A stretch of 37,364 nucleotides of DNA from a virus. Lineage: Duplodnaviria; Heunggongvirae; Uroviricota; Caudoviricetes. The DNA lies in the IMG/VR virus record IMGVR_UViG_2548876853_000021, one strand, 5' to 3'. Shown here in pieces: positions 8,305-37,364 of this stretch. The translations under genes and the position numbers were made by a program. The notes beneath the pieces are model-generated. The model ran no database searches. It was not told where the DNA came from and was given only the letters and a program-made list of their open reading frames with translations. Within the stretch, counting starts at the first letter, position 1. The number at the start of each line of letters is the position of its first letter.

Positions 8305-8820
8305 TCAGAGGCCGAGGGCGTTGCGGTGCGCTTCCATCAGGTCCACACCGTCCACAATTTCCACCATGTTGATAAGGTCCACTTCATAGAGCACCTCACC
8401 ATTGATGGTCAGCTTCGCGTAGCTGTTGGTACTGGTCACTTTGGTGGTGTTGCTTTCGCCCGTCTTCCACTCGCCGGAATCCACTTCTTTGTGACGTCCA
8501 CGCACGACAAGCTCCACGGCCTGCACTTCCCCGGTATCGTCACGCTGAATAGAGCCGGTAAAGCGCAGCTGGATGCCATCCACCGTGGCTTTACCCATCT
8601 GTTTAAACAGCAGCAATTCAGTACCACCAATGGAAAATTCTGTGTCCAGCGCACTGTCATCAAGCCCCAGATCCACATCCACCGCACCCGGCATTCCGCC
8701 GCCGCGATACTTCTCATATTTGCGGGTAAATTTCGGCAGCGTCAGCGACTCAACGATCCCCTGCCAGTTGTTCCCGTCGTTAAACAGGTTCAGGTGTTTT
8801 AATTTGCGTGGTAAAGCCAT
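8305..8820 (-). CDS. FII: tail tube protein FII
   Basis: 171 aa; P2 gpFII size and position. Confidence 0.85.
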   Translation of the reverse strand: MALPRKLKHLNLFNDGNNWQGIVESLTLPKFTRKYEKYRGGGMPGAVDVDLGLDDSALDTEFSIGGTELLLFKQMGKATVDGIQLRFTGSIQRDDTGEVQAVELVVRGRHKEVDSGEWKTGESNTTKVTSTNSYAKLTINGEVLYEVDLINMVEIVDGVDLMEAHRNALGL

Positions 8821-8829
8821 GTTGTCCCC

Positions 8830-10002
8830 TTACGCGCTGACCTGGCTGGCGAAATTCACCAGGTACTGATCGGTGATGCGCTGACGCAGCATCAGGTTTT
8901 CAAGTGGCGGCACTGGCGTGTAGTCGTAGTCGATGGTGAGTTTTCCGGCTTTCAGCGTGTCTTTGTCGTTCACCGACTCATCCAGCCAGCAATCACCACC
9001 AATGAGATAGCCCTGACTGACCAGGCTGCGCATTTTGGCGCGGATACCCTCGATAATGTCGCGCGCCAGCGACGGGTTAAGCGGTTTATCCACCGCCCAC
9101 ATGTGTGCTTCTGCCATCGTGTCCATCAGCACCTGCGCCGTGCGGGTGTAGTTTTCGAAGGCAAAAAGCGGGTCATCACTCAGGCAGCGGGAACCCCAGA
9201 AGCGGAAACCGTCTTTACGCACAAGCGTGGTGACGTCGTTCTGGTTCAGCAGACCTGCATCGGTTGCCGGGTCCTGCAGATCCCAGAACACATCTGCAGA
9301 AATTCCGGTGACACCGTTCACGCCCACGTTGGACAGGCTTTTGTGCCATCCGGTCTGCTCGTCAATTTTGGCGCGCAGACCAAGCGCACGGGCGGTAGCA
9401 TATGCCGTTGCTTCGGCATTCAGCACCGTGTCCCAGCCAGTAAAGTCAGGCCAGATCAGCATCCCTTCGCGCTGGCTGAAGTTTTCGCGGTAAGTGATCG
9501 CCTCCTGCACTGTCTTGCAGCCATACGCTGACAGGTAAGCAAATCCACGCAGGCTTTGCGCCACGCTCAGCAACTCAGTAGCTACCGCCTTGGTGTCGTG
9601 GCCTGGCACGCCAAGAATGCGCGGTTTAACGCCGAGCAGTGACTGGGCAGATAACAGGGCTTTCATACCTGTTTTTTTACCTTCAGCAGTCACTGCGCCG
9701 ATGATATTGGTCGTGGTTTCGTCTTCCGTTTCACCCTGCGGCACACGCACAACAATGGTCACGGGTTTTGCCTGGTCAGCGATGGCATCCAGCGAACGGG
9801 CCAGAGTACCTGACTCACCCGCTTTACCGCTGGCAGTCAGCACATCAGTGATCAGCACGGGTTTATTAAGAGGAAACATTTTTGCATCGGCATCATCGCC
9901 CGTGCAGACCATACCCACGATGGCGGTGCTCACCGTGGTAATAGATCGGGTGCCTTCGTTGACTTCAACAACGCGCACCCCGTGGTGGTAATCCTGAGCC
10001 AT
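8830..10002 (-). CDS. FI: tail sheath protein FI
   Basis: 390 aa; P2 gpFI size and position; AGGAGG Shine-Dalgarno. Confidence 0.9.
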
Positions 10003-22166: not shown

Positions 22167-23933
22167 ATGAACACCACACTGACACCCGCAGATCTCGATC
22201 CCCGTCGGCAGGCCATGCTGCTGTACTTTCAGGGATACCGCGTAGCCCGCATTGCTGAAATGCTGGGCGAGAAAGTTGCAACCGTTCACAGCTGGAAAAA
22301 ACGCGACAAGTGGGGTGACTATGGGCCGCTGGATCAGATGCAGCTCACCACCGCCGCACGCTACTGCCAGCTCATCATGAAGGAGCACAAAGAAGGGAAA
22401 GATTTCAAAGAGATTGACCTGCTGGCGCGCCAGTCGGAGCGCCACGCGCGGATCGGCAAGTTTAACAATGGCGGCAACGAAGCCGACTTAAACCCTAACG
22501 TCGCCAACCGCAATAAAGGCCCACGCCGTCAGCCGGAAAAGAATGTTTTCACCGATGAGCAGATTGAGAAGCTGGAAGAAATCTTCCATTCCTCCATGTT
22601 CAACTACCAGCGCCACTGGTGGGAAGCCGGAAAAACCAACCGCATCCGCAACCTGCTGAAGTCACGCCAGATCGGCGCGACCTTTTACTTTGCCCGTGAA
22701 GCCCTGATTGACGCCCTGCTTACCGGACGTAACCAGATTTTCCTTTCCGCCAGCAAGGCACAGGCCCACGTCTTTAAGCAGTACATCATCGACTTCGCCA
22801 AAGAAGTGGGGGTGGAGTTGAAAGGCGATCCGATGGTGCTTCCTAACGGGGCCACGCTTTACTTCCTCGGCACCAATGCCCGCACGGCCCAGAGTTATCA
22901 CGGCAACCTGTATCTGGATGAATATTTCTGGATACCGAAATTCCAGGAGCTGCGCAAAGTGGCTTCCGGTATGGCTATTCACAAAAAATGGCGACAAACC
23001 TATTTTTCCACGCCATCCAGCCTGACACACAGTGCTTATCCGTTCTGGTCCGGTGCGCTGTTCAACCGTGGGCGCAACAAAGCCGATAAGGTGGACATCG
23101 ACCTGTCCCACAACAATCTGGCCCCCGGCCTGCTGTGCGCAGACGGGCAATACCGCCAGATAGTCACCGTGGAAGATGCGGTGCGCGGCGGCTGTAACCT
23201 GTTCGACCTCGACCAGTTGCGCATGGAGTACAGCCCGGACGAATACCAGAACCTGCTGATGTGTGAGTTCGTAGACGATCTCGCGTCCGTGTTCCCGCTC
23301 AGCGAGCTGCAGGCGTGCATGGTGGACAGCTGGGAAGTCTGGACCGACTTTCATGCACTGGCCCTGCGCCCGTTTGGCTGGCGCGAGGTGTGGATCGGTT
23401 ATGACCCGGCAAAAGGTACGCAGAACGGCGACAGTGCCGGATGCGTTGTGGTGGCTCCGCCAGCCGTGCCGGGCGGTAAGTTCCGCATTCTTGAGCGTCA
23501 CCAGTGGCGCGGGATGGACTTCCGCGCCCAGGCGGACGCCATCAAAAAACTGACCGAACAGTACAACGTGACCTATATCGGCATCGACTCGACCGGCGTC
23601 GGTCACGGGGTTTATGAGAACGTGAAAGCGTTCTTTCCTGCCGTCCGGGAGTTTGTCTACAACACCAACGTTAAAAACGCGCTGGTACTCAAGGCCTACG
23701 ACATTATCAGCCACCACCGTCTGGAGTTTGACGCCGGGCACACCGACATTGCGCAATCATTTATGGCAATCCGTCGCGCCACCACCGCCAGCGGCAACCG
23801 CCCGACCTATGAAGCCAGCCGCAGCGAAGAAGCCAGCCACGCCGATCTGGCCTGGGCAACAATGCACGCACTGTTTAACGAACCACTGCAGGGCGAGTCC
23901 GCCAATACAAGTAATATTGTGGAGATTTTTTGA
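22167..23933 (+). CDS. P: terminase large (ATPase) subunit P
   Basis: 588 aa; P2 gpP size and position. Confidence 0.9.
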   Translation: MNTTLTPADLDPRRQAMLLYFQGYRVARIAEMLGEKVATVHSWKKRDKWGDYGPLDQMQLTTAARYCQLIMKEHKEGKDFKEIDLLARQSERHARIGKFNNGGNEADLNPNVANRNKGPRRQPEKNVFTDEQIEKLEEIFHSSMFNYQRHWWEAGKTNRIRNLLKSRQIGATFYFAREALIDALLTGRNQIFLSASKAQAHVFKQYIIDFAKEVGVELKGDPMVLPNGATLYFLGTNARTAQSYHGNLYLDEYFWIPKFQELRKVASGMAIHKKWRQTYFSTPSSLTHSAYPFWSGALFNRGRNKADKVDIDLSHNNLAPGLLCADGQYRQIVTVEDAVRGGCNLFDLDQLRMEYSPDEYQNLLMCEFVDDLASVFPLSELQACMVDSWEVWTDFHALALRPFGWREVWIGYDPAKGTQNGDSAGCVVVAPPAVPGGKFRILERHQWRGMDFRAQADAIKKLTEQYNVTYIGIDSTGVGHGVYENVKAFFPAVREFVYNTNVKNALVLKAYDIISHHRLEFDAGHTDIAQSFMAIRRATTASGNRPTYEASRSEEASHADLAWATMHALFNEPLQGESANTSNIVEIF

Positions 23934-24961
23934 TGGGAAAGAGTAAGAAGAACCGCGCTGCGTCGCAGAACCAGATCCAGCATAAAAGCCAGACTTCAGC
24001 CGAAGCATTCAGCTTCGGCGATCCCATTCCAGTACTGGACCGCCGCGAACTGCTGGACTATGTGGAATGCGTACAGACAGATCGCTGGTATGAGCCGCCA
24101 GTGAGTTTTGACGGACTTGCGCGAACCTTCCGCGCTGCCGTGCATCACAGCTCACCGATTGCAGTAAAGTGCAATATTCTGACCAGCACCTATATCCCTC
24201 ATCCGTTGCTCAGCCCGCAGGCGTTTTCACGTTTTGTGCAGGACTATCTGGTATTTGGTAACGCCTACCTGGAAAAACGCACGAACCGCTTCGGTGAAGT
24301 TATCGCCCTTGAACCTGCCCTGGCAAAATACACCCGACGCGGGTTAGACCTGGATACCTACTGGTTTGTGCAATACGGCATGACCACGCAACCGTATCAG
24401 TTCACGAAAGGCAGCATTTTTCATCTGATGGAACCGGACATCAACCAGGAGATCTACGGCCTGCCCGGTTATCTTTCTGCCATTCCGTCAGCCCTGCTCA
24501 ACGAATCCGCCACGCTGTTCCGCCGCAAGTATTACATTAACGGTAGTCATGCAGGCTTCATCATGTACATGACCGATGCCGCGCAGAACCAGGAGGATGT
24601 GAACAACCTCCGCAACGCGATGAAAAGCGCCAAAGGTCCAGGCAACTTCCGCAACCTGTTTATGTACTCACCTAACGGCAAAAAAGACGGGCTTCAGATC
24701 ATCCCATTGTCAGAAGTCGCGGCGAAGGATGAATTTCTTAACATCAAGAACGTGAGTCGGGATGACATGATGGCAGCGCACCGCGTGCCGCCGCAAATGA
24801 TGGGGATTATGCCGAATAATGTTGGGGGGTTTGGGGATGTGGAGAAGGCGAGCTTGGTCTTTGTTCGTAATGAACTGATTCCTTTACAAAAAAGACTGAT
24901 GGAAGTAAATGTCTGGCTCAATGAAGAAGTGATTGTATTCAATAGATACATTTTAGAGTAA
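23930..24961 (+). CDS. Q: portal protein Q
   Basis: 343 aa; P2 gpQ size; 4-nt overlap with P. Confidence 0.9.
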   Translation: MMGKSKKNRAASQNQIQHKSQTSAEAFSFGDPIPVLDRRELLDYVECVQTDRWYEPPVSFDGLARTFRAAVHHSSPIAVKCNILTSTYIPHPLLSPQAFSRFVQDYLVFGNAYLEKRTNRFGEVIALEPALAKYTRRGLDLDTYWFVQYGMTTQPYQFTKGSIFHLMEPDINQEIYGLPGYLSAIPSALLNESATLFRRKYYINGSHAGFIMYMTDAAQNQEDVNNLRNAMKSAKGPGNFRNLFMYSPNGKKDGLQIIPLSEVAAKDEFLNIKNVSRDDMMAAHRVPPQMMGIMPNNVGGFGDVEKASLVFVRNELIPLQKRLMEVNVWLNEEVIVFNRYILE

Positions 24962-24991: not shown

Positions 24992-26416
24992 TTACTTACG
25001 TGTTTCAACTATATTCAGCCCCTTATAAAGGCTTTGATGGATATATACAGAACCAGTATTTGGCAACATTAAATCAGCATCTTCACATCGGAATCTAGCC
25101 GTACCGGAATTGCCCAACCGGACACCAATCACAGAAGCATTAAATAGAGTTTTCATCAATTCACGAGAAGTATAGCGCTTACAAAGGTCAGGCGCTTTCT
25201 CTTCAATCTTACTGATGAATTCTTCTGTAGAATTATATCTATGCTGCGTCTGACGTAAAGATTCCAATAGCTCACCAAAATGAGGGTAGAGCCTTTTGTA
25301 TTCTTGTTTTAAGTCCTCAACTTTCCAAGCGCTGTACCGTTCTTCAGCTATTCTAATTATATCCTTTTTTATTTCAGAAGCATTAGCATCACAGCGTTTT
25401 TGGCATTCTTGCAAAAACTGAATAACTTCTCTTGGGCGCAAAAATGTGCGCTTCACCAAATAGTTAAACGGTGAAATACTCCCTCTCATTTCACCTTCCT
25501 CAAAAATATCATCTATAGTTATATTTTCCGGCAATCTGGCGTTCACCATATCTTTCAACAACTCTGGTGTCCAGATTATTTCTTCTTCAATTGCCCGGTG
25601 TTTATCTTTATCATCAAATTCCAGCCCTTGATAAATATCAGAGCGTAAAAATGTTACAATATGAATACCTTTGGCTCTAGTATCAGAATAACTATCATTA
25701 ATATCTTTTGTTGCCTTCAACAAGCCAATCAAAAGGCTTTTGGCATCATCCGATCCATCCCAAGAATCATCTAATCGATCAGTGGCAATTAGCACCCCAA
25801 TATCAGTACAAATTTCTTTAAGCTCGTCAAGGATGATTTTTATTATTTGAGGTGTCAATGGTGCTTGCGAAGCATCCCTATTAAACCCCACAGCATATCC
25901 GAAAGCCTCAAAATTGAATGAACTTAATCCCGAGAGTAACTTCCTTGCAGTTCCCAAAGTAGTTGGCGATATACCACCATAGTTATCAAAAACAAATTTT
26001 TTAATTCTAGCAAGGGCCTCCTGAGGTCTTTTCTCTGAAAATTGCCTACCTGACCTAATAATTTCTGCCGCAGCCTCAACAGCTATTGCAAATTTCCAAG
26101 CATTACAATGTGCCTGTTCGGGTAACAACCCTTGCTCTTGATATTGTTTTAATGCTCCCCAAGCATACTGGTCTGGGGTCATGACATTTACGATAACGTC
26201 CTGCCCATATTTTGCTCTTACCAACCTTGGGAGTTGGGTAAAGATGGATGATTTCCCAGCCCCCTTTCTTCCAAGAAAATGGGCACTATAGAAACTCAGA
26301 GCTTGCTCAACTTGAGGAGTATTGATGAAATAATCAGCCAACCTTCTATCAGCTTCAGCATCGACAGTACCAAAGTTGAGTCCCTTAACTGTAAGGCCTA
26401 ACGCATCTAACCGCAC
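24992..26416 (-). CDS. P-loop NTPase of unassigned family (accessory gene between portal and cos)
   Basis: 474 aa; Walker A GRKGAGKS (aa 49-56); Walker B-like IIKIILDE followed by DRLDD; GTG start with AAGGA Shine-Dalgarno; lower GC than flanking structural genes. Confidence 0.75.
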   Translation of the reverse strand: MRLDALGLTVKGLNFGTVDAEADRRLADYFINTPQVEQALSFYSAHFLGRKGAGKSSIFTQLPRLVRAKYGQDVIVNVMTPDQYAWGALKQYQEQGLLPEQAHCNAWKFAIAVEAAAEIIRSGRQFSEKRPQEALARIKKFVFDNYGGISPTTLGTARKLLSGLSSFNFEAFGYAVGFNRDASQAPLTPQIIKIILDELKEICTDIGVLIATDRLDDSWDGSDDAKSLLIGLLKATKDINDSYSDTRAKGIHIVTFLRSDIYQGLEFDDKDKHRAIEEEIIWTPELLKDMVNARLPENITIDDIFEEGEMRGSISPFNYLVKRTFLRPREVIQFLQECQKRCDANASEIKKDIIRIAEERYSAWKVEDLKQEYKRLYPHFGELLESLRQTQHRYNSTEEFISKIEEKAPDLCKRYTSRELMKTLFNASVIGVRLGNSGTARFRCEDADLMLPNTGSVYIHQSLYKGLNIVETRK

Positions 26417-26503
26417 GATAATTCCTTAATTGGTAAACTAAATTTGAACTTGATGCCAACAAAGATAATATCAATTTAATTAAAAAGAAAGCTGTTGCGC
26501 GCG

Positions 26504-26522
26504 CTCGTATCCCCGCCACGCC
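26504..26522. other. putative cos (cohesive end) site
   Basis: cgtatCCCCGCCACGCC resembles, as recalled from memory, the reverse complement of the 186/P2 19-nt cohesive end; lies in the only large non-coding stretch between Q and A. Confidence 0.45.
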
Positions 26523-26553
26523 TGCCCGCTTTATGTAGTAGTTTTCATGCACC

Positions 26554-26654
26554 TGCATGACATGAGCAAAAGCCCGCCAGTTCTGGCATGTCTTAGCCAA
26601 ACCGATCCTCAAACGATCATGCGAACTCATGCAGCATAGACATGCATGACATGA
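26554..26654. repeat. 12-bp direct repeat tgcatgacatga x2 (26554-26565 and 26643-26654) within a CATG-rich tract next to cos
   Basis: exact 12-mer repeated 89 bp apart. Confidence 0.5.
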
Positions 26655-26995
26655 AAATCGGTCAAACCTTGAAACCAGTCATAAATATGAGCCAGCTTAA
26701 TACACACTAAATAGCTGCGTCTAATACTGCTACACCTGCCGTTTACTGACATGTGGCATGTCGCGTAAGGACAACATACTGTAGGCCAGATACAGCAGGA
26801 TCAGGCGAAGAAAACGGCCCCACGCCTTACCCAGCAAGGGCCAAGGGCTAACCGAAAGTGGAGCATTATTCCGCGCAGTTATTTAGTGTCAGCTCTTTTG
26901 AGCTAAAATCAAGTTTCAACATGAGGGTCTGTGCAGGCTTTCTCATCCCGCTAATTTATACAGCACACCTATATGGCTATGAGTTTGTCATGCCC

Positions 26996-27027
26996 GCTAA
27001 TCCTGTTAGGATTAGCCTTGTTTTTTT
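26996..27027 (+). terminator. strong hairpin plus U-tract immediately upstream of the lipoprotein gene
   Basis: gctaatcct-gtt-aggattagc then cttgTTTTTTT; ends 18 nt before the ATG at 27045. Confidence 0.5.
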
Positions 27028-27044
27028 ACGATTGGGATAGGGAT

Positions 27045-27851
27045 ATGAAGAAATTAACTGGCGTAATTGCTTTTGCTCTGCTGCTTACTGCTTGTGACAA
27101 ACCGAAGATCGATGCATCAAGCGATCAGTCGATGAAAGAGTCCATTCAAAAAGTAAGAGAGTCCTTACCTGCAGATAAAAAAGCTCAGTTTGATGATGCA
27201 GTTAAAGTCGTTGCCTTTAGCCAAATCAACATGAGAGAGCTAATGCAGGCTGGAACGTCTTCTGGGGACGTCTACGAAACAAAAATTAAGTCAGCGTTGG
27301 AAGGTAAAACTGGTGATGAGGTTATAAATTACGCACAAACTATTCGCCTTGAGCGTGAGAAGAGAGAGAAAGAACAGGCTCTGCAAGAAATAAAAGAACT
27401 GGAAGCCAAACAAACCTCTGCAACACAGGCTGCGGAAAAAATGAAAGCCTTCAAGGTCGAACGTTCCCGTTTTTATTTCCAGAAAGAGGATTACGGCAAT
27501 GATCAGCCAATTCTGGATATTAGCGTTGAAAACGGAACAGACAAAGCGGTTGCCAGAGTATTCTTCAAAGGAGTTATTGCCAGCCCAGGAAGAAGCGTCC
27601 CTTGGTTCTCTGACGTCTTCAACTATAAAATTTCTGGAGGTCTGGAACCAGGTGAGAAAGCCAACTGGAAATTAGCCCCTAATAGATACTCTGATTGGGG
27701 AAAACTTAAAGTTCCGGCTGATGCTATATTTACCGTCACAGTCATTGGCCTTGAAGACGCAGATGGGAAATCGATCTATGGTGACGCCGAGTTTTCAGAA
27801 CGCGATGCTGACAGACTGAATCAACTTAGAGATAAGTACCTTTCTAAATAA
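27045..27851 (+). CDS. lipoprotein, function unknown (accessory)
   Basis: 268 aa from MKKLTGVIAFALLLTAC (lipobox LLTAC); charged coiled-coil middle region; about 40% GC. Confidence 0.7.
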   Translation: MKKLTGVIAFALLLTACDKPKIDASSDQSMKESIQKVRESLPADKKAQFDDAVKVVAFSQINMRELMQAGTSSGDVYETKIKSALEGKTGDEVINYAQTIRLEREKREKEQALQEIKELEAKQTSATQAAEKMKAFKVERSRFYFQKEDYGNDQPILDISVENGTDKAVARVFFKGVIASPGRSVPWFSDVFNYKISGGLEPGEKANWKLAPNRYSDWGKLKVPADAIFTVTVIGLEDADGKSIYGDAEFSERDADRLNQLRDKYLSK

Positions 27852-27959
27852 TCAAAATTAAAGCTACTTCAGCATAGTCCCTGAGAATATATATCAGGGA
27901 CTACCAAATCACGGCAGATACCCCTTAGTTAAATAATGCTAAACGCTTAGAAAGAGACC

Positions 27960-28259
27960 ATGAAACGTATAACTTTCTCCTTTACGTTAGTAGCAATCAT
28001 CATAGCCTTAGCTGGATGTGCTTTGCCAGATAAAGACGGCGACTTCGGAGCTTATGTTCATGCCTGTCAGCAATATGCATACGGAAAATCCTATGCCTTT
28101 GAGAATAGAGACTTCGCGTATAAGGTCTGTAAGGACGCGGCGAAACTGTGGAGTGAAGAAGTTCCTGGCTATATCATCAGGCAAATTCAACTACATCCTG
28201 AAATACCCAGCGAAGAAATTAAATATGCAGCCATGGCCGGCTCTTTGGGTAACAACTAA
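27960..28259 (+). CDS. small lipoprotein, function unknown (accessory)
   Basis: 99 aa; signal peptide with lipobox LAGC; Cys-containing mature part. Confidence 0.65.
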   Translation: MKRITFSFTLVAIIIALAGCALPDKDGDFGAYVHACQQYAYGKSYAFENRDFAYKVCKDAAKLWSEEVPGYIIRQIQLHPEIPSEEIKYAAMAGSLGNN

Positions 28260-28272
28260 ATCAACTTATGAG

Positions 28273-28294
28273 AAAGGGGCTTAATGCCCCTTTT
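28273..28294. terminator. hairpin between convergent small lipoprotein gene and minus-strand small ORF
   Basis: aaaggggc-ttaat-gcccctttt. Confidence 0.4.
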
Positions 28295-28326
28295 CGGTTC
28301 CCTTATCAAGTCCTAACGAAACAAGC

Positions 28327-28515
28327 TCAACTGATTACATCCATCGACCTACTGTATTCATGGCTTCGAATTTTCGCCATCAACTCATCAGTCAATTCAG
28401 AAACCCACTGCAGAGCTAGCCCCTTCTCTTCATCACTACACTCACTAGCCGCTACAAGCTTAAGAAAAAAATCAATGCGCTGGAGCTTCAAAGACTCCAA
28501 AAAATAGTCCTGCAT
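28327..28515 (-). CDS. small hypothetical protein (about 62 aa, helical, acidic)
   Basis: internal ATG preceded by GGAGGAAAG; the longer ORF-track start (28617) is less likely. Confidence 0.4.
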   Translation of the reverse strand: MQDYFLESLKLQRIDFFLKLVAASECSDEEKGLALQWVSELTDELMAKIRSHEYSRSMDVIS

Positions 28516-28668
28516 CTTTCCTCCTATAACACCATACGCAATACTGTACATATAACCACTGTTTATATTTACAGTATATAATAATCTTACTGATGTAAAA
28601 CGTTTTTTTACGTTCATCAGCCTGATATGCCTGGTATTATTAAGAGCACGAATTGTTAACCCGCGTGA

Positions 28669-31083
28669 TTAATACAGGTTCCGCCACTTATCATCTTCCT
28701 GCAAACGCTGGTTCCGATAGAAGATACGCAGGCCTGCTCCTGACGGAATACTGCCACCGCAAAGGAGCAAATCGACCTCTTTCTCGCTGCCATCAAATCC
28801 TCTGGACTTCAGTTCATAGACGAGCTGCTGACGCTGATACTCTGTAATTCGCTGTTTGTAGTCTTTACGCCGTTTCGGTTTAACCAGGCGCAATCTTGCT
28901 GCCAGTTCCCGGCGCTCTTTTTTGCTCATACTGTGCAGGTAATCGTGCAATTCCTTGTCATCCATGCAGGTAATGTCCGTTCTGGTATCCCCATCTGCTG
29001 ATTCATCTTTCTCATGTTGGTTCAAATTTTCAGCAAGGGGACAGTTATTGCCACGAGTCCAAGGGGCGCAAGCGCCCTGGTCGGCTGCCGCCTCCTGAAC
29101 GTCAACGGCTTTACGAACCATTTTCCACTTCACTGCATGAGTGCAGATCTTGCCCTCTGCAATGGGTGACCAGATGCCATAAATACGAATACCGTGATCG
29201 CCATAGGCGGTCGGCTCTTCGTTGATTTCATAAGCGGTTCTGATGAGGTGATATTTACGGGGAACCAGTACGCCGCCCTGCTTCATGATGTAGGAGGCAA
29301 AGCAACCAGCATCAGCTGCAGCCAGAATGGCATCAAGGCGCGGGTTATCCAGTACCGGCGCACCTGCTTTTTTGTCACCCTGTTGCCTTGCCGCCTGACC
29401 AGCCAACAATCGCAGTTCACGGTAAGCCTGACGCCCCGGAATGCCAAAGAAGCGGAATTGCTGAACACGATGCAGAGACGCCCAGGCATTAACGTATTCA
29501 GCGTTATCACGCAGAGATTTCCCCGTTTCCTTGCTGATCTCGCCAGCCAGACCACGCCCGTCAATGTTCTTACTGATGTATTTCGCGATATAGCTTGTTG
29601 GCGTACCTTTGCGCGGGTTAATCAACTCAGACTTAAAGCGCGGCCCAGTGTTATTGCCCAGCTCCTCGCGGTCTTCACGGATGGCAAACTTACGCAGTAA
29701 TGCAGTGATGGCGCGGCGGTCTTTTTTGCGCATAAAACACAACAGGTGCCAGTGAACTGTACCGTCATGATGCGGCTCAGCCACCCGCACGCCATACCAG
29801 CGCAATCCGGCTTTGTGCATCGCCTTACGAAATGCAGCAAACATGCCGACCAGATAATCACTACTTTGTCTTACCGTCGCATTTGTCCAGGTTGGGTTGG
29901 ACCTGCCGTTATTTAGCGTGGAATGGAAACGTGACGGACAGGTGATGGTGTAGAAAACGGCGCAGTCACCGCGCATTTCCGCGATAAGCTCCAGACCTTT
30001 AACACAGGCCATCATCTCATTGCGGCGATGCGCAGGGTTGCTGCTGCTGGCGTTTACCACATCCTCCATGTCCAGCGTGTCGCCGTCTTCGTTCACCAGT
30101 TCATGAGAACGGAAAAACTCCAGCGACTTACGGCGCTGCTCACGTTTATGCATCACGGCTTCATAGCTGACATAAGGAGATGCTTTTTTGCTGACCAGGC
30201 AGACAGCGCGCAACTGCTCTTCCCGCCATTCGCAACGCATCTTCCATAATTTCCGATACCACCAGTCGGCGCACAACATACGCGCCAGCGAACCCGGAAT
30301 GAGTTCATAGGGCACGGGTTTACGGCGGTTTCTTTTCCAGCGGAGTTGCTCAAACGCAGGTGGGATGACATCCAGACGCAGGGTTTCCGCTGCCACCTTT
30401 TCCCATGTCTTGCGGATTTCTTCTGGCTTAACATCATCGGTGGCGTACAAATCACCACAAGCGGCATCAAGACACATGCTCATATGCGCAGCGACAAGAG
30501 TAGACAGGCGTTTCACCTGATCCTGACTCATTTCAGGCAGGATCAGCAGGCCGTCCAGCCCTTCATGGCTTGCCATAAAGCGAAAAGAAGTGGATAGCTG
30601 ACTGTCGCGTACATGCTCCAGTCGTTCCAGACATGGCTTAATCGTCTCACGCAAATAGCGGGAATAAGCCTTTGGCCTGCCCAGGCTGCTGAAGTATTCA
30701 ATACGTTGCATCAGCGGCTTGCTGATATGGGAAGACTGGGCGTTTACGTCCGCCAGAATGACCATGTCTGGATTAAAACGCTGCTGCTCATGCGCCAGCT
30801 TTGCCCGGCTAATGAGCTTATCCTGCTCCATTTCGCGCTGGACAGGATCACGGGATTCATTAAAGAAATAACGCTCCCAGACCTGCTCACTCAGTGCCTC
30901 GCGGCGCAGTTGTTCCTGTTCGTTATCGGCAGCGTACAGAGTGATCAGGTTTGAAAGTGCAGACTCCGGCGCAACTTCCGCCGGATCCAGATAAGGGTTA
31001 ATGGCCTTTTTCGGGCCGTTCCATGAAAATGATGCAGCGGCCTCGTTAAAGCCGCTAGAGTTGCTCATATCGTCATGACTCAT
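28669..31083 (-). CDS. A: replication initiation protein A (rolling-circle initiator)
   Basis: 804 aa; P2/186 gpA size and position; ATGA overlap with the upstream dam stop. Confidence 0.9.
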
Positions 31084-33224: not shown

Positions 33225-33734
33225 TCACAGCAAACCGAATGAAGCACCGAGGCCAGTCACGGTATCAACTGCACTCGCCATCGCAGGATTAGCCTGTAAA
33301 CGGGCCTGCAATGAAACAGCCGCCAGCGCCATCAGTCGTGTTACAGAATTAATGCTGCTGATCGCATCGCGACGGCCTGCACTGGTTTTTACATCGCCAG
33401 AAACCGCACCTGCAGCAACACGCCCGATCTCTGCGGTTGCACTCATGACGTAATGTGGCAGTCTCTCTTTTGCCACCTCATTTACCGGTATACATGGCAG
33501 GCAGTGAATCTGAGCCAGAAATCCATCAACCAGTGTTGGGTCTTCAGTGAGATCGGTTAACTGCCAGATATCTGACGCAGTAAGTTGGTGTGGTTGTTCC
33601 GGGTTGAGCTTGTTACGCAAGGTTTGAACGTTCATACCTGCGCGCTCTGCCAGCTTCGCCATGTTGTGTCGTAGGGCGAAGGCCCGGCAGGCTTCATTGA
33701 AATGGGGATGTTTTGAAATGCGATAGTCAAACAT
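33225..33734 (-). CDS. cII: CII-like regulatory protein (186 CII type)
   Basis: 169 aa, same length as 186 CII; second gene of the lytic operon after apl. Confidence 0.75.
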   Translation of the reverse strand: MFDYRISKHPHFNEACRAFALRHNMAKLAERAGMNVQTLRNKLNPEQPHQLTASDIWQLTDLTEDPTLVDGFLAQIHCLPCIPVNEVAKERLPHYVMSATAEIGRVAAGAVSGDVKTSAGRRDAISSINSVTRLMALAAVSLQARLQANPAMASAVDTVTGLGASFGLL

Positions 33735-33766
33735 AGTCAGTTGCTCCGTGAAGTCTCAAAATGGAA

Positions 33767-33988
33767 CTAGTTGATAGTCACGTTGCAATCAGAGAGGGCA
33801 TCGATCGTCATCGCAGCAATGTTAATCATCACTTTTTCACGCTTTTTATCCTTACGTAGGCGATGACGAGGCAAACGCCCATCTGCAAGCATGTCGTTAA
33901 TTGTGTCGATAGATAAGCCAGTGAGTTCACTATATCTTTCTATAGTAACGTGGGGGGTGATGAGAGTGATTGAAATGTTAGGTCTCAT
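33767..33988 (-). CDS. apl: Apl/Cox-like excisionase-repressor
   Basis: 73 aa from ATG with AAGAGGA Shine-Dalgarno; small basic HTH protein divergent from cI. Confidence 0.7.
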   Translation of the reverse strand: MRPNISITLITPHVTIERYSELTGLSIDTINDMLADGRLPRHRLRKDKKREKVMINIAAMTIDALSDCNVTIN

Positions 33989-34113
33989 GATGCAACATTC
34001 CTCTTTTAGCAATGATTAATCAGGATGAATACTGATCGTTTGTATTATGTGAACACTGCAAACATACGATCACATCATGAAATCGTCAAGGTAAAAGTTC
34101 ACTTGGAGTGACC
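33989..34113. promoter_or_regulatory. apl-cI intergenic switch region with candidate operator dyad
   Basis: 125-bp AT-rich region between divergent genes; inverted repeat tgatcgtttgt (34033-34043) / acatacgatca (34062-34072). Confidence 0.5.
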
Positions 34114-34677
34114 ATGAATTTGGAAAAAGGCGGTCGTGGGGCCATAGAGCGCATGGTTGAAGCCTATGGTTTCAAGACAAGACAAGCTTTGTGTGATCAT
34201 TTGGGCATTTCTAAAAGCACCTTAGCCACGCGCTATATGCGTGATTCATTCCCGGCAGAATGGGTAATCCAATGTGCACTTGAAACCGGCACGTCGCTAG
34301 AGTGGCTAACTACTGGGCAAGGTTCAAAAGAAAGTTCACAAAAAGAAAACACAAAAGAGATCGAAAGGAAGATTTTATCAAGCGGAAAACTACTTCCTGA
34401 TGGTTACTACATTTTCGACAACAACTTTTTGCCTGAAAAACTAAAAAAACCTTTTGTTGTGATCGATGGCGCATCAGAGTTTATCTGTGATTCGGATTAT
34501 GAGGATGTACGTGATGGTAAGTGGATCGTTGATATTGATGGCGAGGTTGCTATCAGGAATCTGACAAGACTGCCGGGACGTCGTCTAAATGTCGATGGCG
34601 GCAGCAGTTCCTTTGAATGCAAAATAGATGAAATTGATATCATAGGAAAAATTAGAAGCGCGATCGTCAATTATTAA
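34114..34677 (+). CDS. cI: CI immunity repressor (186 CI type)
   Basis: 187 aa from ATG with GGAG Shine-Dalgarno; N-terminal HTH; size and position as 186 CI. Confidence 0.8.
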
Positions 34678-34700
34678 AATTAATGTATAAGGAAATAAAT

Positions 34701-34886
34701 ATGTTTTATAAATCTATACATATCCTACTTATTTGTTTATTTATTACTTTACCTATTACAAGTTTTGCAAAAAATTATCCATGTTCTGGTAAGAAAGGGG
34801 GAGTTTCACATTGTACATCTGATGGGAAGTTCGTTTGCAATGATGGAACGCAAAGCAAGTCAAAGAAAATATGTTCTAAAAACTAA
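34701..34886 (+). CDS. small secreted Cys-rich peptide (predicted signal peptide, about 38-aa mature peptide)
   Basis: [23 protein letters not shown] signal-like N-terminus, then a Lys-rich mature region with 4 Cys; AAGGA Shine-Dalgarno; very AT-rich. Confidence 0.5.
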
Positions 34887-34897
34887 GGTTGCTTCAT

Positions 34898-36229
34898 ATG
34901 AATAATGATATGACTTTTGAAAACAGAGATGAGTATAATAGAAAAATCATTGCTGAAAAAATAATAAGCTTACTCGAGTCCCCCTTAAAAATATCCCCTA
35001 TTGTTATCGATGGGGACTGGGGTACCGGTAAAACCGAATTTTCAAAAAAATTAGCGGCATTGATTGAAAAAAATGAATCTGGGCATAAAGTAGTATATAT
35101 TGATGCATTTACTGAAGATCATAATGATGCTCCCATACTTACTATAATGGCTGCAATAGTTGCATTATATCCAGAGAGTGAAAAGAAGGAATTAATATCA
35201 AAGGCATTACCAGCATTGAGATTTGGACTTAAAACTGTACTCAAAGCTGGCGCTGGGTGGATTTTAAAACAAAATGCAGATGATATTGCGGATGAATTCG
35301 AAGATGCTATTAAAGATGCGGCTAACTCAGCTATAGATGGTACTGTAGAAGCACTGCTTGATGATCATATTGAAGCAAAGAAACATTTGCTTGCTCTCAA
35401 GGAAGTACTTGCTGAACTAACTAGCGAAAATAAAATAACAATTATCATTGACGAACTTGACCGTTGTAAACCAAGCTTTGCCATCTCTATCATCGAAAAT
35501 ATAAAACATGTTTTTGACACTGAAAATCTTAACTTCTTGTTAGTTGCTAACATCTCACAATTGAAAGCATCAATAAATCATATTTACGGTGCAGGTGTTG
35601 ACTCAGAAAGATATCTTGATAAATTTATAAAATTCACTTACAGCCTGCCAGTGACTTTCACTGAAAACAATTACGATAAAATTTTGGCTTCGAACTCTCA
35701 TTTTAGAATGCTATGTAACGAGTCTGAAAGACTAAAAGAAATTGGAGAAAGTAGTATTCATATAGTTCAAAAATTTATCGAACTAAAAGGCTTGTCGCTA
35801 CGGGAAGTTGAAACCTTATCAAGATATCTAGAAATTTATCAAATTTTATCTCAAAATGAAATCAGCAATAAATTTATACCAGGCTATTGCTGTTATCGAA
35901 CCCTTGCAGTAATTCTTTATTCGTTTGGTCGTGAACTGGCCCTTAACTACGTAGAAGATAAAATAGATGCACAATTAATAATCAATTTCTTCGGTGTTAA
36001 TAGACTCCCATATCAGACAGATCAATATAACATCAACATCTACTATTATGCATTATTTGGTATAACTTATAAATATATGCCAGAAGGTTCTCCTTTACTT
36101 CCTTCTGAAAACGATGAAAAAAACAGATGGGCTGAAATAAGTGATTATCATATTTTAAAAGGAAATGCAGGTGTAGAAGACCCTGTTAGAATATTCAAAA
36201 ACACCTTAAAAGTTTTCTTGCTCCAATGA
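34898..36229 (+). CDS. KAP-family P-loop NTPase
   Basis: 443 aa; Walker A GDWGTGKT and Walker B IIIDELDRC typical of KAP NTPases; Shine-Dalgarno overlaps the stop of the upstream small ORF; AT-rich. Confidence 0.8.
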   Translation: MNNDMTFENRDEYNRKIIAEKIISLLESPLKISPIVIDGDWGTGKTEFSKKLAALIEKNESGHKVVYIDAFTEDHNDAPILTIMAAIVALYPESEKKELISKALPALRFGLKTVLKAGAGWILKQNADDIADEFEDAIKDAANSAIDGTVEALLDDHIEAKKHLLALKEVLAELTSENKITIIIDELDRCKPSFAISIIENIKHVFDTENLNFLLVANISQLKASINHIYGAGVDSERYLDKFIKFTYSLPVTFTENNYDKILASNSHFRMLCNESERLKEIGESSIHIVQKFIELKGLSLREVETLSRYLEIYQILSQNEISNKFIPGYCCYRTLAVILYSFGRELALNYVEDKIDAQLIINFFGVNRLPYQTDQYNINIYYYALFGITYKYMPEGSPLLPSENDEKNRWAEISDYHILKGNAGVEDPVRIFKNTLKVFLLQ

Positions 36230-36287
36230 AATGTTTGATTGAAGATCTTTAAACATTGACCACTGTTCAAACATACAGTTAAATTTA

Positions 36288-36311
36288 GTCCTCAGACATG
36301 AGGACTTTTTT
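36288..36311 (+). terminator. intrinsic terminator after the KAP gene; its stem contains the int Shine-Dalgarno
   Basis: gtcctca-gaca-tgaggac then TTTTTT, directly abutting the int ATG at 36312. Confidence 0.55.
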
Positions 36312-37364
36312 ATGGCAGTACGAAAACTCAACACAGGTAAATGGATTTGTGAATGCTACCCCGCCGGGCGCAATGGGCGGCGTGTGCGTAAGCAGTTTGC
36401 AACTAAGGGTGAAGCATTGGCTTTTGAGCGTCACACGATGGAAGAAACCGGAGCAAAACCCTGGCTGGGTGAATCAGTGGATCGTCGAACACTGAAAGAC
36501 GTGGTTGAGCTATGGTTCAAACTACATGGTAAATCTCTGACGGCTGGGCAGCATGTCTATGACAAATTGCTGTTGATGGTTGACGCTCTGGGAAATCCCA
36601 TTGCAACCGATCTCACCTCTAAAATGTTTGCCCACTATCGAGATAAACGCCTGACAGGAGAGATCTACTTCAGCGAAAAATGGAAGAAAGGAGCAAGCCC
36701 GGTCACCGTTAACCTAGAGCAAAGCTATCTAAGTAGTGTTTTTAGCGAACTATCCCGCCTGGGCGAATGGTCGTATCCGAACCCACTGGAGAACATGCGA
36801 AAATTCACCATCGCAGAAAAAGAGATGGCATGGCTTACCCATGAACAGATTGTTGAATTGCTGGCTGATTGCAAACGTCAGGACCCAATTCTGGCACTGG
36901 TAGTCAAGATATGCTTAAGCACAGGCGCACGCTGGCGAGAAGCAATAAATCTTACCCGTTCACAGGTGACTAAATACCGAATTACCTTTGTCAGAACGAA
37001 GGGGAAGAAAAACAGAAGCATTCCCATCAGTAAAGAGCTTTACGAAGAGATCATGGCACTTGATGGGTTCAATTTCTTTACAGACTGCTATTTTCAATTT
37101 TTATCCGTGATGGAAAAAACGTCTATCGTGCTCCCTCGCGGTCAACTGACACACGTTCTGCGTCATACGTTTGCGGCGCATTTTATGATGTCGGGTGGAA
37201 ACATCCTGGCCTTACAAAAAATTCTCGGGCATCACGATATAAAAATGACGATGCGTTACGCACATCTGGCACCGGATCATCTGGAAACGGCGCTCCGTTT
37301 CAATCCTCTTGCAACGCTGCCAAGTGGCGACAAAGTGGCGGCAGCGGTTGGCATTACCCCGTAA
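36312..37364 (+). CDS. int: tyrosine integrase (P2-family)
   Basis: 350 aa; N-terminus resembles P2 Int; catalytic R (LSTGARWREA), H-x-x-R (HVLRHTF) and Y (MRYAHL); stop is the last codon of the window. Confidence 0.9.
   Translation: MAVRKLNTGKWICECYPAGRNGRRVRKQFATKGEALAFERHTMEETGAKPWLGESVDRRTLKDVVELWFKLHGKSLTAGQHVYDKLLLMVDALGNPIATDLTSKMFAHYRDKRLTGEIYFSEKWKKGASPVTVNLEQSYLSSVFSELSRLGEWSYPNPLENMRKFTIAEKEMAWLTHEQIVELLADCKRQDPILALVVKICLSTGARWREAINLTRSQVTKYRITFVRTKGKKNRSIPISKELYEEIMALDGFNFFTDCYFQFLSVMEKTSIVLPRGQLTHVLRHTFAAHFMMSGGNILALQKILGHHDIKMTMRYAHLAPDHLETALRFNPLATLPSGDKVAAAVGITP

Follow-up and report, generated by a model that had tools for sequence, protein, structure and literature searches.

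The stretch of DNA analysed here (the window, 37,364 nucleotides; IMG/VR virus record IMGVR_UViG_2548876853_000021) is a 186-like prophage sequence which carries, between the repressor gene cI and the integrase gene int, an insert encoding a small exported peptide of the YdcA family and a P-loop NTPase of the KAP family. In phage 186, cI abuts int without a gap, the two genes sharing coordinate 22433. An original prediction, made from the sequence alone, singled out the insert as the best candidate for an undescribed two-gene defence module expressed in lysogens. Our analysis leads to a different reading. Among 5426 complete Escherichia coli genomes, the space between cI and int (the slot) holds the peptide gene without the NTPase gene in 590, the NTPase gene without the peptide gene in 15 and the pair in 9, which argues against a single module. 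Because each of the two genes occurs without the other and with other partners, we read the NTPase as a stand-alone protein. On balance we consider it probable that the insert combines two independent lysogenic-conversion genes in a cI-int cargo hotspot, one for a KAP NTPase of the PADLOC candidate family PDC-S20, which would act alone as an anti-phage sensor or switch, and one for an independent exported YdcA peptide.

Layout and transcription of the cI-int insert

The insert comprises 1634 nt (34678-36311) and is indeed AT-rich, with a GC content of 0.323 as compared to 0.518 in the rest of the window and 0.525 in bases 1-30000. The locus is composed of the following features.

34108-34677, plus strand: cI repressor, ORF (open reading frame) from GTG (PGAP start at ATG 34114), stop codon TAA; left anchor of the slot
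34701-34886, plus strand: YdcA-family precursor, 61 aa
34701-34769, plus strand: signal peptide of the precursor
34770-34883, plus strand: mature peptide, 38 aa, Lys-rich, four Cys
34884-34897, plus strand: junction of the peptide and KAP genes; an AAGG ribosome binding site (RBS) overlaps the peptide stop codon TAA; 11-nt spacer before the KAP ATG
34898-36229, plus strand: KAP P-loop NTPase, 443 aa from ATG (a TTG is also present at 34889)
36256-36285, plus strand: promoter-like element TTGACC-N18-TAAATT with an ACTGT-N8-ACAGT inverted repeat in its spacer
36287-36311, plus strand: terminator-like hairpin (8-bp stem, 4-nt loop) followed by a T-run, ending at the int ATG
36312-37364, plus strand: integrase, 350 aa; right anchor of the slot

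The left anchor matches Pfam Phage_CI_repr (E 3e-33) and Phage_CI_C (E 6e-29), the right anchor Int_N (E 1.8e-32) and Phage_integrase (E 7e-22). In the identical prophage of E. coli ST131 strain 4224 (locus L001) they are annotated as 'phage repressor protein CI' and 'phage integrase', respectively. A nucleotide search of a phage collection with the insert gave no match, and a protein search of phages returned only remote KAP matches.

The peptide gene was originally thought to start 5 nt past the cI stop codon. The ATG in question (34683) is missing from an Enterobacter homologue (L082), and the conserved start is the ATG at 34701, 23 nt past the cI stop and with AAGGA 7 nt upstream; PGAP likewise calls the 61-aa form. 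The overlap of the NTPase Shine-Dalgarno sequence with the peptide stop codon was described correctly, AAGG lying over TAA. The 11-nt spacing between the two genes is also found in L082 and L083, and at a locus with the NTPase gene only (L084) KAP is preceded by a GGAG site of its own.

Both genes lie on the cI strand, as had been described, and no terminator-like site follows cI before position 36287. The hairpin at 36287-36311 is the sole terminator-like site within 33700-36500. It is kept in 10 slot variants, in which the stem sequences differ and still pair (-10 to -18 kcal/mol), and its 3' arm contains the int RBS (GAGG). As this hairpin with its T-run stands between KAP and int, the cargo is probably part of the cI transcript, while int is not necessarily so. 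Every slot variant has kept the promoter-like element upstream of int, which delimits the cargo slot on the right. A transcript from this site would start inside the 5' arm of the hairpin and would therefore escape it, whereas read-through from cI would form it. The element at 36256-36311 may thus insulate int from the lysogenic transcript. A promoter scan of the insert gave 12 sites versus 9.6 expected, hence no evidence for an internal promoter.

The YdcA-family peptide

Judged by its sequence, the peptide is a member of the YdcA family, as indicated by profile match, small size, signal peptide and four-cysteine core. It matches NCBIfam PRK10040.1-2 (NF007463; E 3.5e-25, 87.6 bits, slightly below the equivalog cutoff of 93) and phrog_6000 (E 6.5e-26), and PGAP labels it 'YdcA family protein'. 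PF27300, read from precomputed matches of the peptide homologues, is present on every close homologue. Hydropathy and sequence agree with the precursor as first described: the hydrophobic N-terminus, with a hydropathy peak of 2.5 over residues 5-22, ends in SFA, and the mature part of 38 aa contains 4 Cys and 8 Lys. Across 24 homologues, identity to the window peptide amounts to 90% in the mature part and to 43% in the signal part, and we therefore regard the ORF as a real coding sequence. The peptide core (FVCNDG...C; G-F-C-DG-S-SK-C) is invariant in the homologues.

In a library of 1.84 billion proteins, the family makes up 439 clusters when grouped at 50% identity. YdcA-like genes are present in temperate phages of Moraxella, Acinetobacter, Haemophilus and Pseudomonas, and on plasmids (47 records, mostly from Acinetobacter and Rhizobium). 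The UniRef label 'conjugal transfer protein' for YdcA-like proteins was not adopted, only 5 of the 47 plasmid records being conjugative. The chromosomal ydcA of E. coli K-12 has been linked only to acid and 3-hydroxypropionate stress. A chromosome record with about 47% identity to the peptide is presumably this gene.

A hint at the site of action comes from Dis2 (Lpg0823), a disulfide-pinned protein with five disulfides, which belongs to the Dot/Icm secretion complex of Legionella and lies close to the outer membrane. The YdcA family profile matches both lobes of Dis2 (E 1.5e-5). Dis2 was also the top match in a Foldseek search with the peptide model, which returned nothing significant (E 2.2); the link is thus significant by profile-sequence search only and not by fold match alone. 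Dis2 (PDB 7muc chain AN, Dot/Icm outer-membrane cap) is a two-lobed component of a secretion machine, while the YdcA peptide resembles a single lobe and looks like a single-lobe homologue. From this homology, the peptide likely acts under the outer membrane. It would be exported by the Sec pathway, stabilised by disulfides and active in the periplasm independently of the NTPase. That it serves in phage exclusion at the envelope is a guess by analogy. In phage K139, the gene glo encodes a periplasmic protein and has been called an immunity gene; Glo reportedly contributes to phage exclusion, a finding ascribed to Nesper et al. in 1999.

The position of the peptide gene may be old. Haemophilus phage HP2 (NC_003315, L095) carries on the minus strand at 2486-2668 an unannotated, intact YdcA-like ORF of 60 aa, whose ATG overlaps the cI stop codon (TAATG). 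It is followed by orf1, encoding a tRNA_anti-like OB fold, and then by int. The order in HP2, cI, YdcA-like ORF, further gene and int, is the architecture of the window. The slot form of the peptide is found in about 11% of complete E. coli genomes. Taken together, these data would fit a reading in which the YdcA peptide is a widespread factor for envelope-level superinfection exclusion or envelope modulation, an old and semi-fixed first gene after cI in P2-like phages from HP2 to the enterobacterial 186-like phages, stacked here with a cytosolic KAP protein as a second layer. We hold this to be a minority possibility, unlikely in the form stated. Its frequency in E. coli and its conservation after cI as far as HP2 make the peptide notable nevertheless; accompanying cI as it does across P2-like phages, it may be of greater interest than the NTPase.

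The NTPase and its defence contexts

The 443-aa protein carries the KAP domain that had been proposed for it. It matches Pfam KAP_NTPase (PF07693) with E 3.7e-51 and 174.6 bits (cutoff 20), residues 16-315 aligning to profile positions 2-290 of 293. The Walker A motif GDWGTGKT is located at residues 39-46 (35012-35035) and the Walker B/KAP signature IIIDELDRC at residues 182-190 (35441-35467). Across 61 homologues, with identities down to 40%, Walker A, Walker B and the DELDRC signature do not vary. Moreover, the protein matches the PADLOC model PDC-S20 (PDLC04956) with E 1.1e-171 and 570 bits, residues 1-441 aligning to positions 1-447 of 450, and phrog_8614 with E 2.9e-96. The KAP variants of KAP-only loci and of Klebsiella match PDC-S20 equally well. 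By these sequence comparisons the NTPase is a PDC-S20 member, predicted to be soluble, and a single-gene candidate defence protein.

No transmembrane (TM) helix is predicted in the NTPase, the maximum 19-residue Kyte-Doolittle hydropathy being 1.1. TM helices inserted in the NTPase domain are typical of many KAP members (after Aravind 2004). As such an insertion is not universal in the family, the assignment to KAP stands without it. Residues 104-160 correspond in position to the TM-bearing insert of other KAP proteins; here they are conserved and amphipathic. Residues 104-125 (35207-35272) form a conserved, poorly modelled insert, and the strongly conserved amphipathic segment reads LPALRFGLKTVLKAGAGWILKQ. 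The AlphaFold2 (AF2) model is confident overall (pLDDT, predicted local distance difference test score, 81.7) and low at residues 110-154; the C-terminal part is helical from about residue 320. A sequence search of the Protein Data Bank (PDB) with the KAP profile gave no match. The best solved fold for the NTPase in a Foldseek search was RdrA (PDB 8hr8, 8fnu and others; E 1e-6, TM-score 0.40-0.45).

The genomic surroundings of KAP homologues are of a defence type. At five loci (L009, L011, L016, L019, L026) homologues with 42-47% identity lie within Type I restriction-modification (R-M) operons of Psychrobacter, Shewanella, Ferrimonas, Aliidiomarina and an uncultured gammaproteobacterium. The operon order is hsdM, hsdS, KAP and hsdR, with a gene for Abi_2 or a PD-(D/E)XK protein between KAP and hsdR in two cases. 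The KAP family is also found at accessory positions in temperate phages of two unrelated families and in a primase-encoding element. In Citrobacter and Cronobacter, KAP stands alone between the antiterminator Q and holin genes of lambdoid prophages, and in Salmonella houtenae it adjoins a primase-helicase element. The 145 PDC systems are candidates which the authors of PADLOC derived from genes lying within BREX, DISARM and Type I R-M systems (Payne et al. 2024, 10.1101/2024.01.29.577857). The window NTPase is a full-length member of PDC-S20 and is likewise a single gene with R-M-embedded relatives; new here are its location between cI and int in a 186-like prophage and the YdcA gene that is often next to it.

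Other KAP-type NTPases are proven defence proteins, among them QatA of the Qat system, Tmn and the Enterococcus EF_KAP fusions; defence by EF_KAP is Walker B-dependent. QatA, Tmn and EF_KAP are P-loop NTPases of the KAP/YobI kind, as is the window NTPase, and Tmn is an ATP-driven defence protein acting on the membrane. Tmn and EF_KAP were not taken as close counterparts of the window NTPase: they possess TM helices and/or long effector regions, of which it has neither. Membership in Qat was rejected as well, the NCBIfam QatA match (E 2.6e-11) scoring 42.9 bits against a cutoff of 600 and QatBCD being absent from a slot of only two genes. The PADLOC matches to QatA and PifA are confined to the NTPase core. 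With PifA of the F plasmid, the window NTPase has in common a KAP-type core (PADLOC PifA model E 3e-15, residues 8-252, profile positions 14-255 of 720), carriage by a mobile element and, in its presumed role, the exclusion of other phages. It is not a PifA protein, because only the first 255 or so of the 720 profile positions align and the 443-aa NTPase lacks the rest. PifA is triggered by the T7 proteins gp1.2 and gp10 and has a membrane phenotype. RdrA of RADAR is a ring-forming defence ATPase of about 800-850 aa that works with the deaminase RdrB; its identity to the window NTPase is 11-14%. We regard this as a remote likeness of fold and not as membership in RADAR, since the slot contains no second large gene and no PADLOC RdrA match.

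From these contexts we propose the following course of events. Both genes would be read from the cI lysogenic transcript, which would end at the hairpin before int. The helical C-terminal region of the NTPase would recognise a component of an infecting phage, the protein would assemble into a ring like the RdrA-type ATPases, and NTP binding or hydrolysis would shut down the infected cell or the infection. The conserved amphipathic insert possibly acts on the membrane, as has been proposed for PifA and Tmn. Should the KAP protein protect lysogens, PDC-S20 would gain its first functional support, and this compact, effector-less KAP ATPase would be a simple model for the arrest of a phage by a bare KAP switch.

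The NTPase might instead serve purposes other than defence, for example in the control of lysogeny or induction, against satellites or plasmids, or in addiction, its surroundings then reflecting a general cargo hotspot. The family is indeed known as a candidate only and has no effector domain, P2-like hotspots also hold partitioning systems and toxins (Rousset 2022, PMC9122126), and one paper notes that phage restriction is perhaps not the primary role of PifA. Yet prophage biology hardly explains why homologues in unrelated bacteria are embedded in R-M operons beside Abi_2 and PD-(D/E)XK genes, the gene is found in three different mobile-element slots, and other members of the KAP class are proven defences. 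We therefore consider a non-defence role unlikely.

Slot contents and the relation of the two genes

For a survey of the slot, 80 related viral contigs were gathered with cI as the anchor, loci found via both proteins were added, and the content between cI and int was measured. By far the commonest content is YdcA alone (402-404 nt). YdcA with KAP always gives a slot of 1637 nt, and KAP alone, as in E. coli L084 with the order cI, KAP and int, one of 1464 nt. An 8xMP membrane protein together with PDC-M11A and PDC-M11B fills 2129 nt. Further contents are a 418-aa protein with weak HEPN similarity and a 393-aa protein without assigned family, and in one slot the YdcA gene is interrupted by an insertion sequence. 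Altogether, at least seven different contents occur between cI and the conserved element upstream of int, among them the PADLOC candidates PDC-S20 and PDC-M11; the PDC-M11, HEPN-like and unassigned cargoes are all AT-rich. The slots with PDC-M11 (L105-L112, about 2129 nt; e.g. L108 6579-8596) encode an octameric 8xMP membrane protein (PF24838), PDC-M11A and PDC-M11B with an ASCH domain; PADLOC does not include the 8xMP protein in its PDC-M11 models.

The cI-int slot of 186-like prophages, which belong to the Peduoviridae, is thus a cargo hotspot resembling that of the K139-type Vibrio phages. In K139-like, P2-related Vibrio phages a defence hotspot between cI and int has been described (Rousset et al. 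2022, PMC9122126). Common to both are the position between repressor and integrase in a P2-related prophage and a variable cargo that includes defence genes; the window differs in its 186-like, enterobacterial lineage and in its cargo (YdcA, PDC-S20, PDC-M11 and others). With this, the term 'undescribed' goes too far for the insert: the NTPase is catalogued as a PDC-S20 candidate, the peptide bears the name YdcA, and the hotspot is published for Vibrio phages. The defence role suggested in the original prediction fares better for the NTPase, for which PDC-S20 membership and R-M contexts make it plausible, than for the pair as one module, for which it does not hold. We accordingly see no new two-gene system here; on sequence grounds, the NTPase gene plausibly serves in defence and is situated in a hotspot of a type already known. 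With cI and the int-upstream element as anchors, the slot of 186-like prophages could be mined for new systems.

An obligate, translationally coupled two-gene defence, in which the NTPase might for example control the peptide as a sensor or toxin in the periplasm, would account for several features of the pair. The 11-nt stop-start spacing is conserved with the RBS overlapping the stop codon, and the pair recurs in E. coli, Enterobacter, Kosakonia, Klebsiella and Buttiauxella, the slot measuring 1637 nt throughout and KAP identity falling to as little as 54%. However, the peptide and the NTPase do not co-occur obligately, as the slot often contains one of the two genes without its partner. KAP is found with other upstream partners or none, as in Yersinia (cI, a 160-aa cytosolic protein, KAP, int), and YdcA with other downstream partners, as in Hafnia (cI, YdcA, a 347-aa protein, int). 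In Enterobacter hormaechei the order is cI, YdcA and int, with a gap of 2 nt between YdcA and int. The KAP of the KAP-only E. coli locus L084 is 72% identical to a YdcA-linked Klebsiella KAP, so that YdcA was gained or lost within one KAP clade. Near distant KAP homologues, a YdcA ORF was found at 0 of 80 loci, and PADLOC models KAP as a single-gene candidate. Finally, a direct partnership is unlikely because the peptide has a signal sequence and would be exported, whereas the NTPase has no TM helix and would be cytosolic. A literature search for YdcA together with KAP gave nothing relevant. An obligate pair is, in our judgement, quite improbable.

The reading of two independent genes, one of them for defence, also has points against it. 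The geometry of the pair (1637-nt slot, 11-nt spacer) is constant where the KAPs are only 54-56% identical; linkage explains this, and it is also compatible with selection on the pair. KAP-only prophages could be supplied with peptide in trans, given a chromosomal ydcA in E. coli. On the side of the NTPase, neither Pfam, the AF2 model nor the fold search revealed a recognisable effector domain, for which reason the killing or blocking step is speculative. The defence activity of PDC-S20 is that of a listed candidate, and the literature searched does not mention PDC-S20. Expression of the cargo in lysogens from the cI promoter is probable, the argument here being gene order only.

That the insert is decaying or neutral hitch-hiking DNA with ORFs no longer functional, as its AT-rich, foreign character and the rarity of the pair in E. 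coli (9/5426 genomes) could suggest, is hardly credible, since both ORFs are intact in all copies seen, the KAP catalytic residues are invariant down to 40% identity, the mature peptide is far better conserved than its signal part (90% vs 43%) and the KAP model is confident (pLDDT 81.7).

Further cargo was observed outside the slot. In a 186-like prophage of E. hormaechei (L189 5281-6843), int is directly followed by the gene for a 520-aa ABC-type ATPase that resembles HEC-04 (E 6e-47) and, more weakly, AriA, PtuA and GajA; the position beyond int may be a further cargo site. The window itself contains a second AT-rich island (24992-28617, GC content 0.37-0.45) between the portal gene (23930-24961) and the replication gene A (28669-31083), at the position of the published cos-adjacent hotspot of P2. 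It encodes a 474-aa protein with a Walker A-like motif GRKGAGKS, for which Pfam and PADLOC gave no match, a 292-aa DUF6694 protein and a 99-aa lipoprotein with the lipobox LAGC.

With respect to the site of integration, an ompF pseudogene without its N-terminus, beside aspC, directly follows the integrase gene in L001 (region 8761-9765). As this pseudogene adjoins the integrase gene, the integration site of the prophage may lie in or at ompF. A P2-like element of Xenorhabdus (L190) that bears YdcA and ogr also lies beside a porin gene and an aminotransferase gene.

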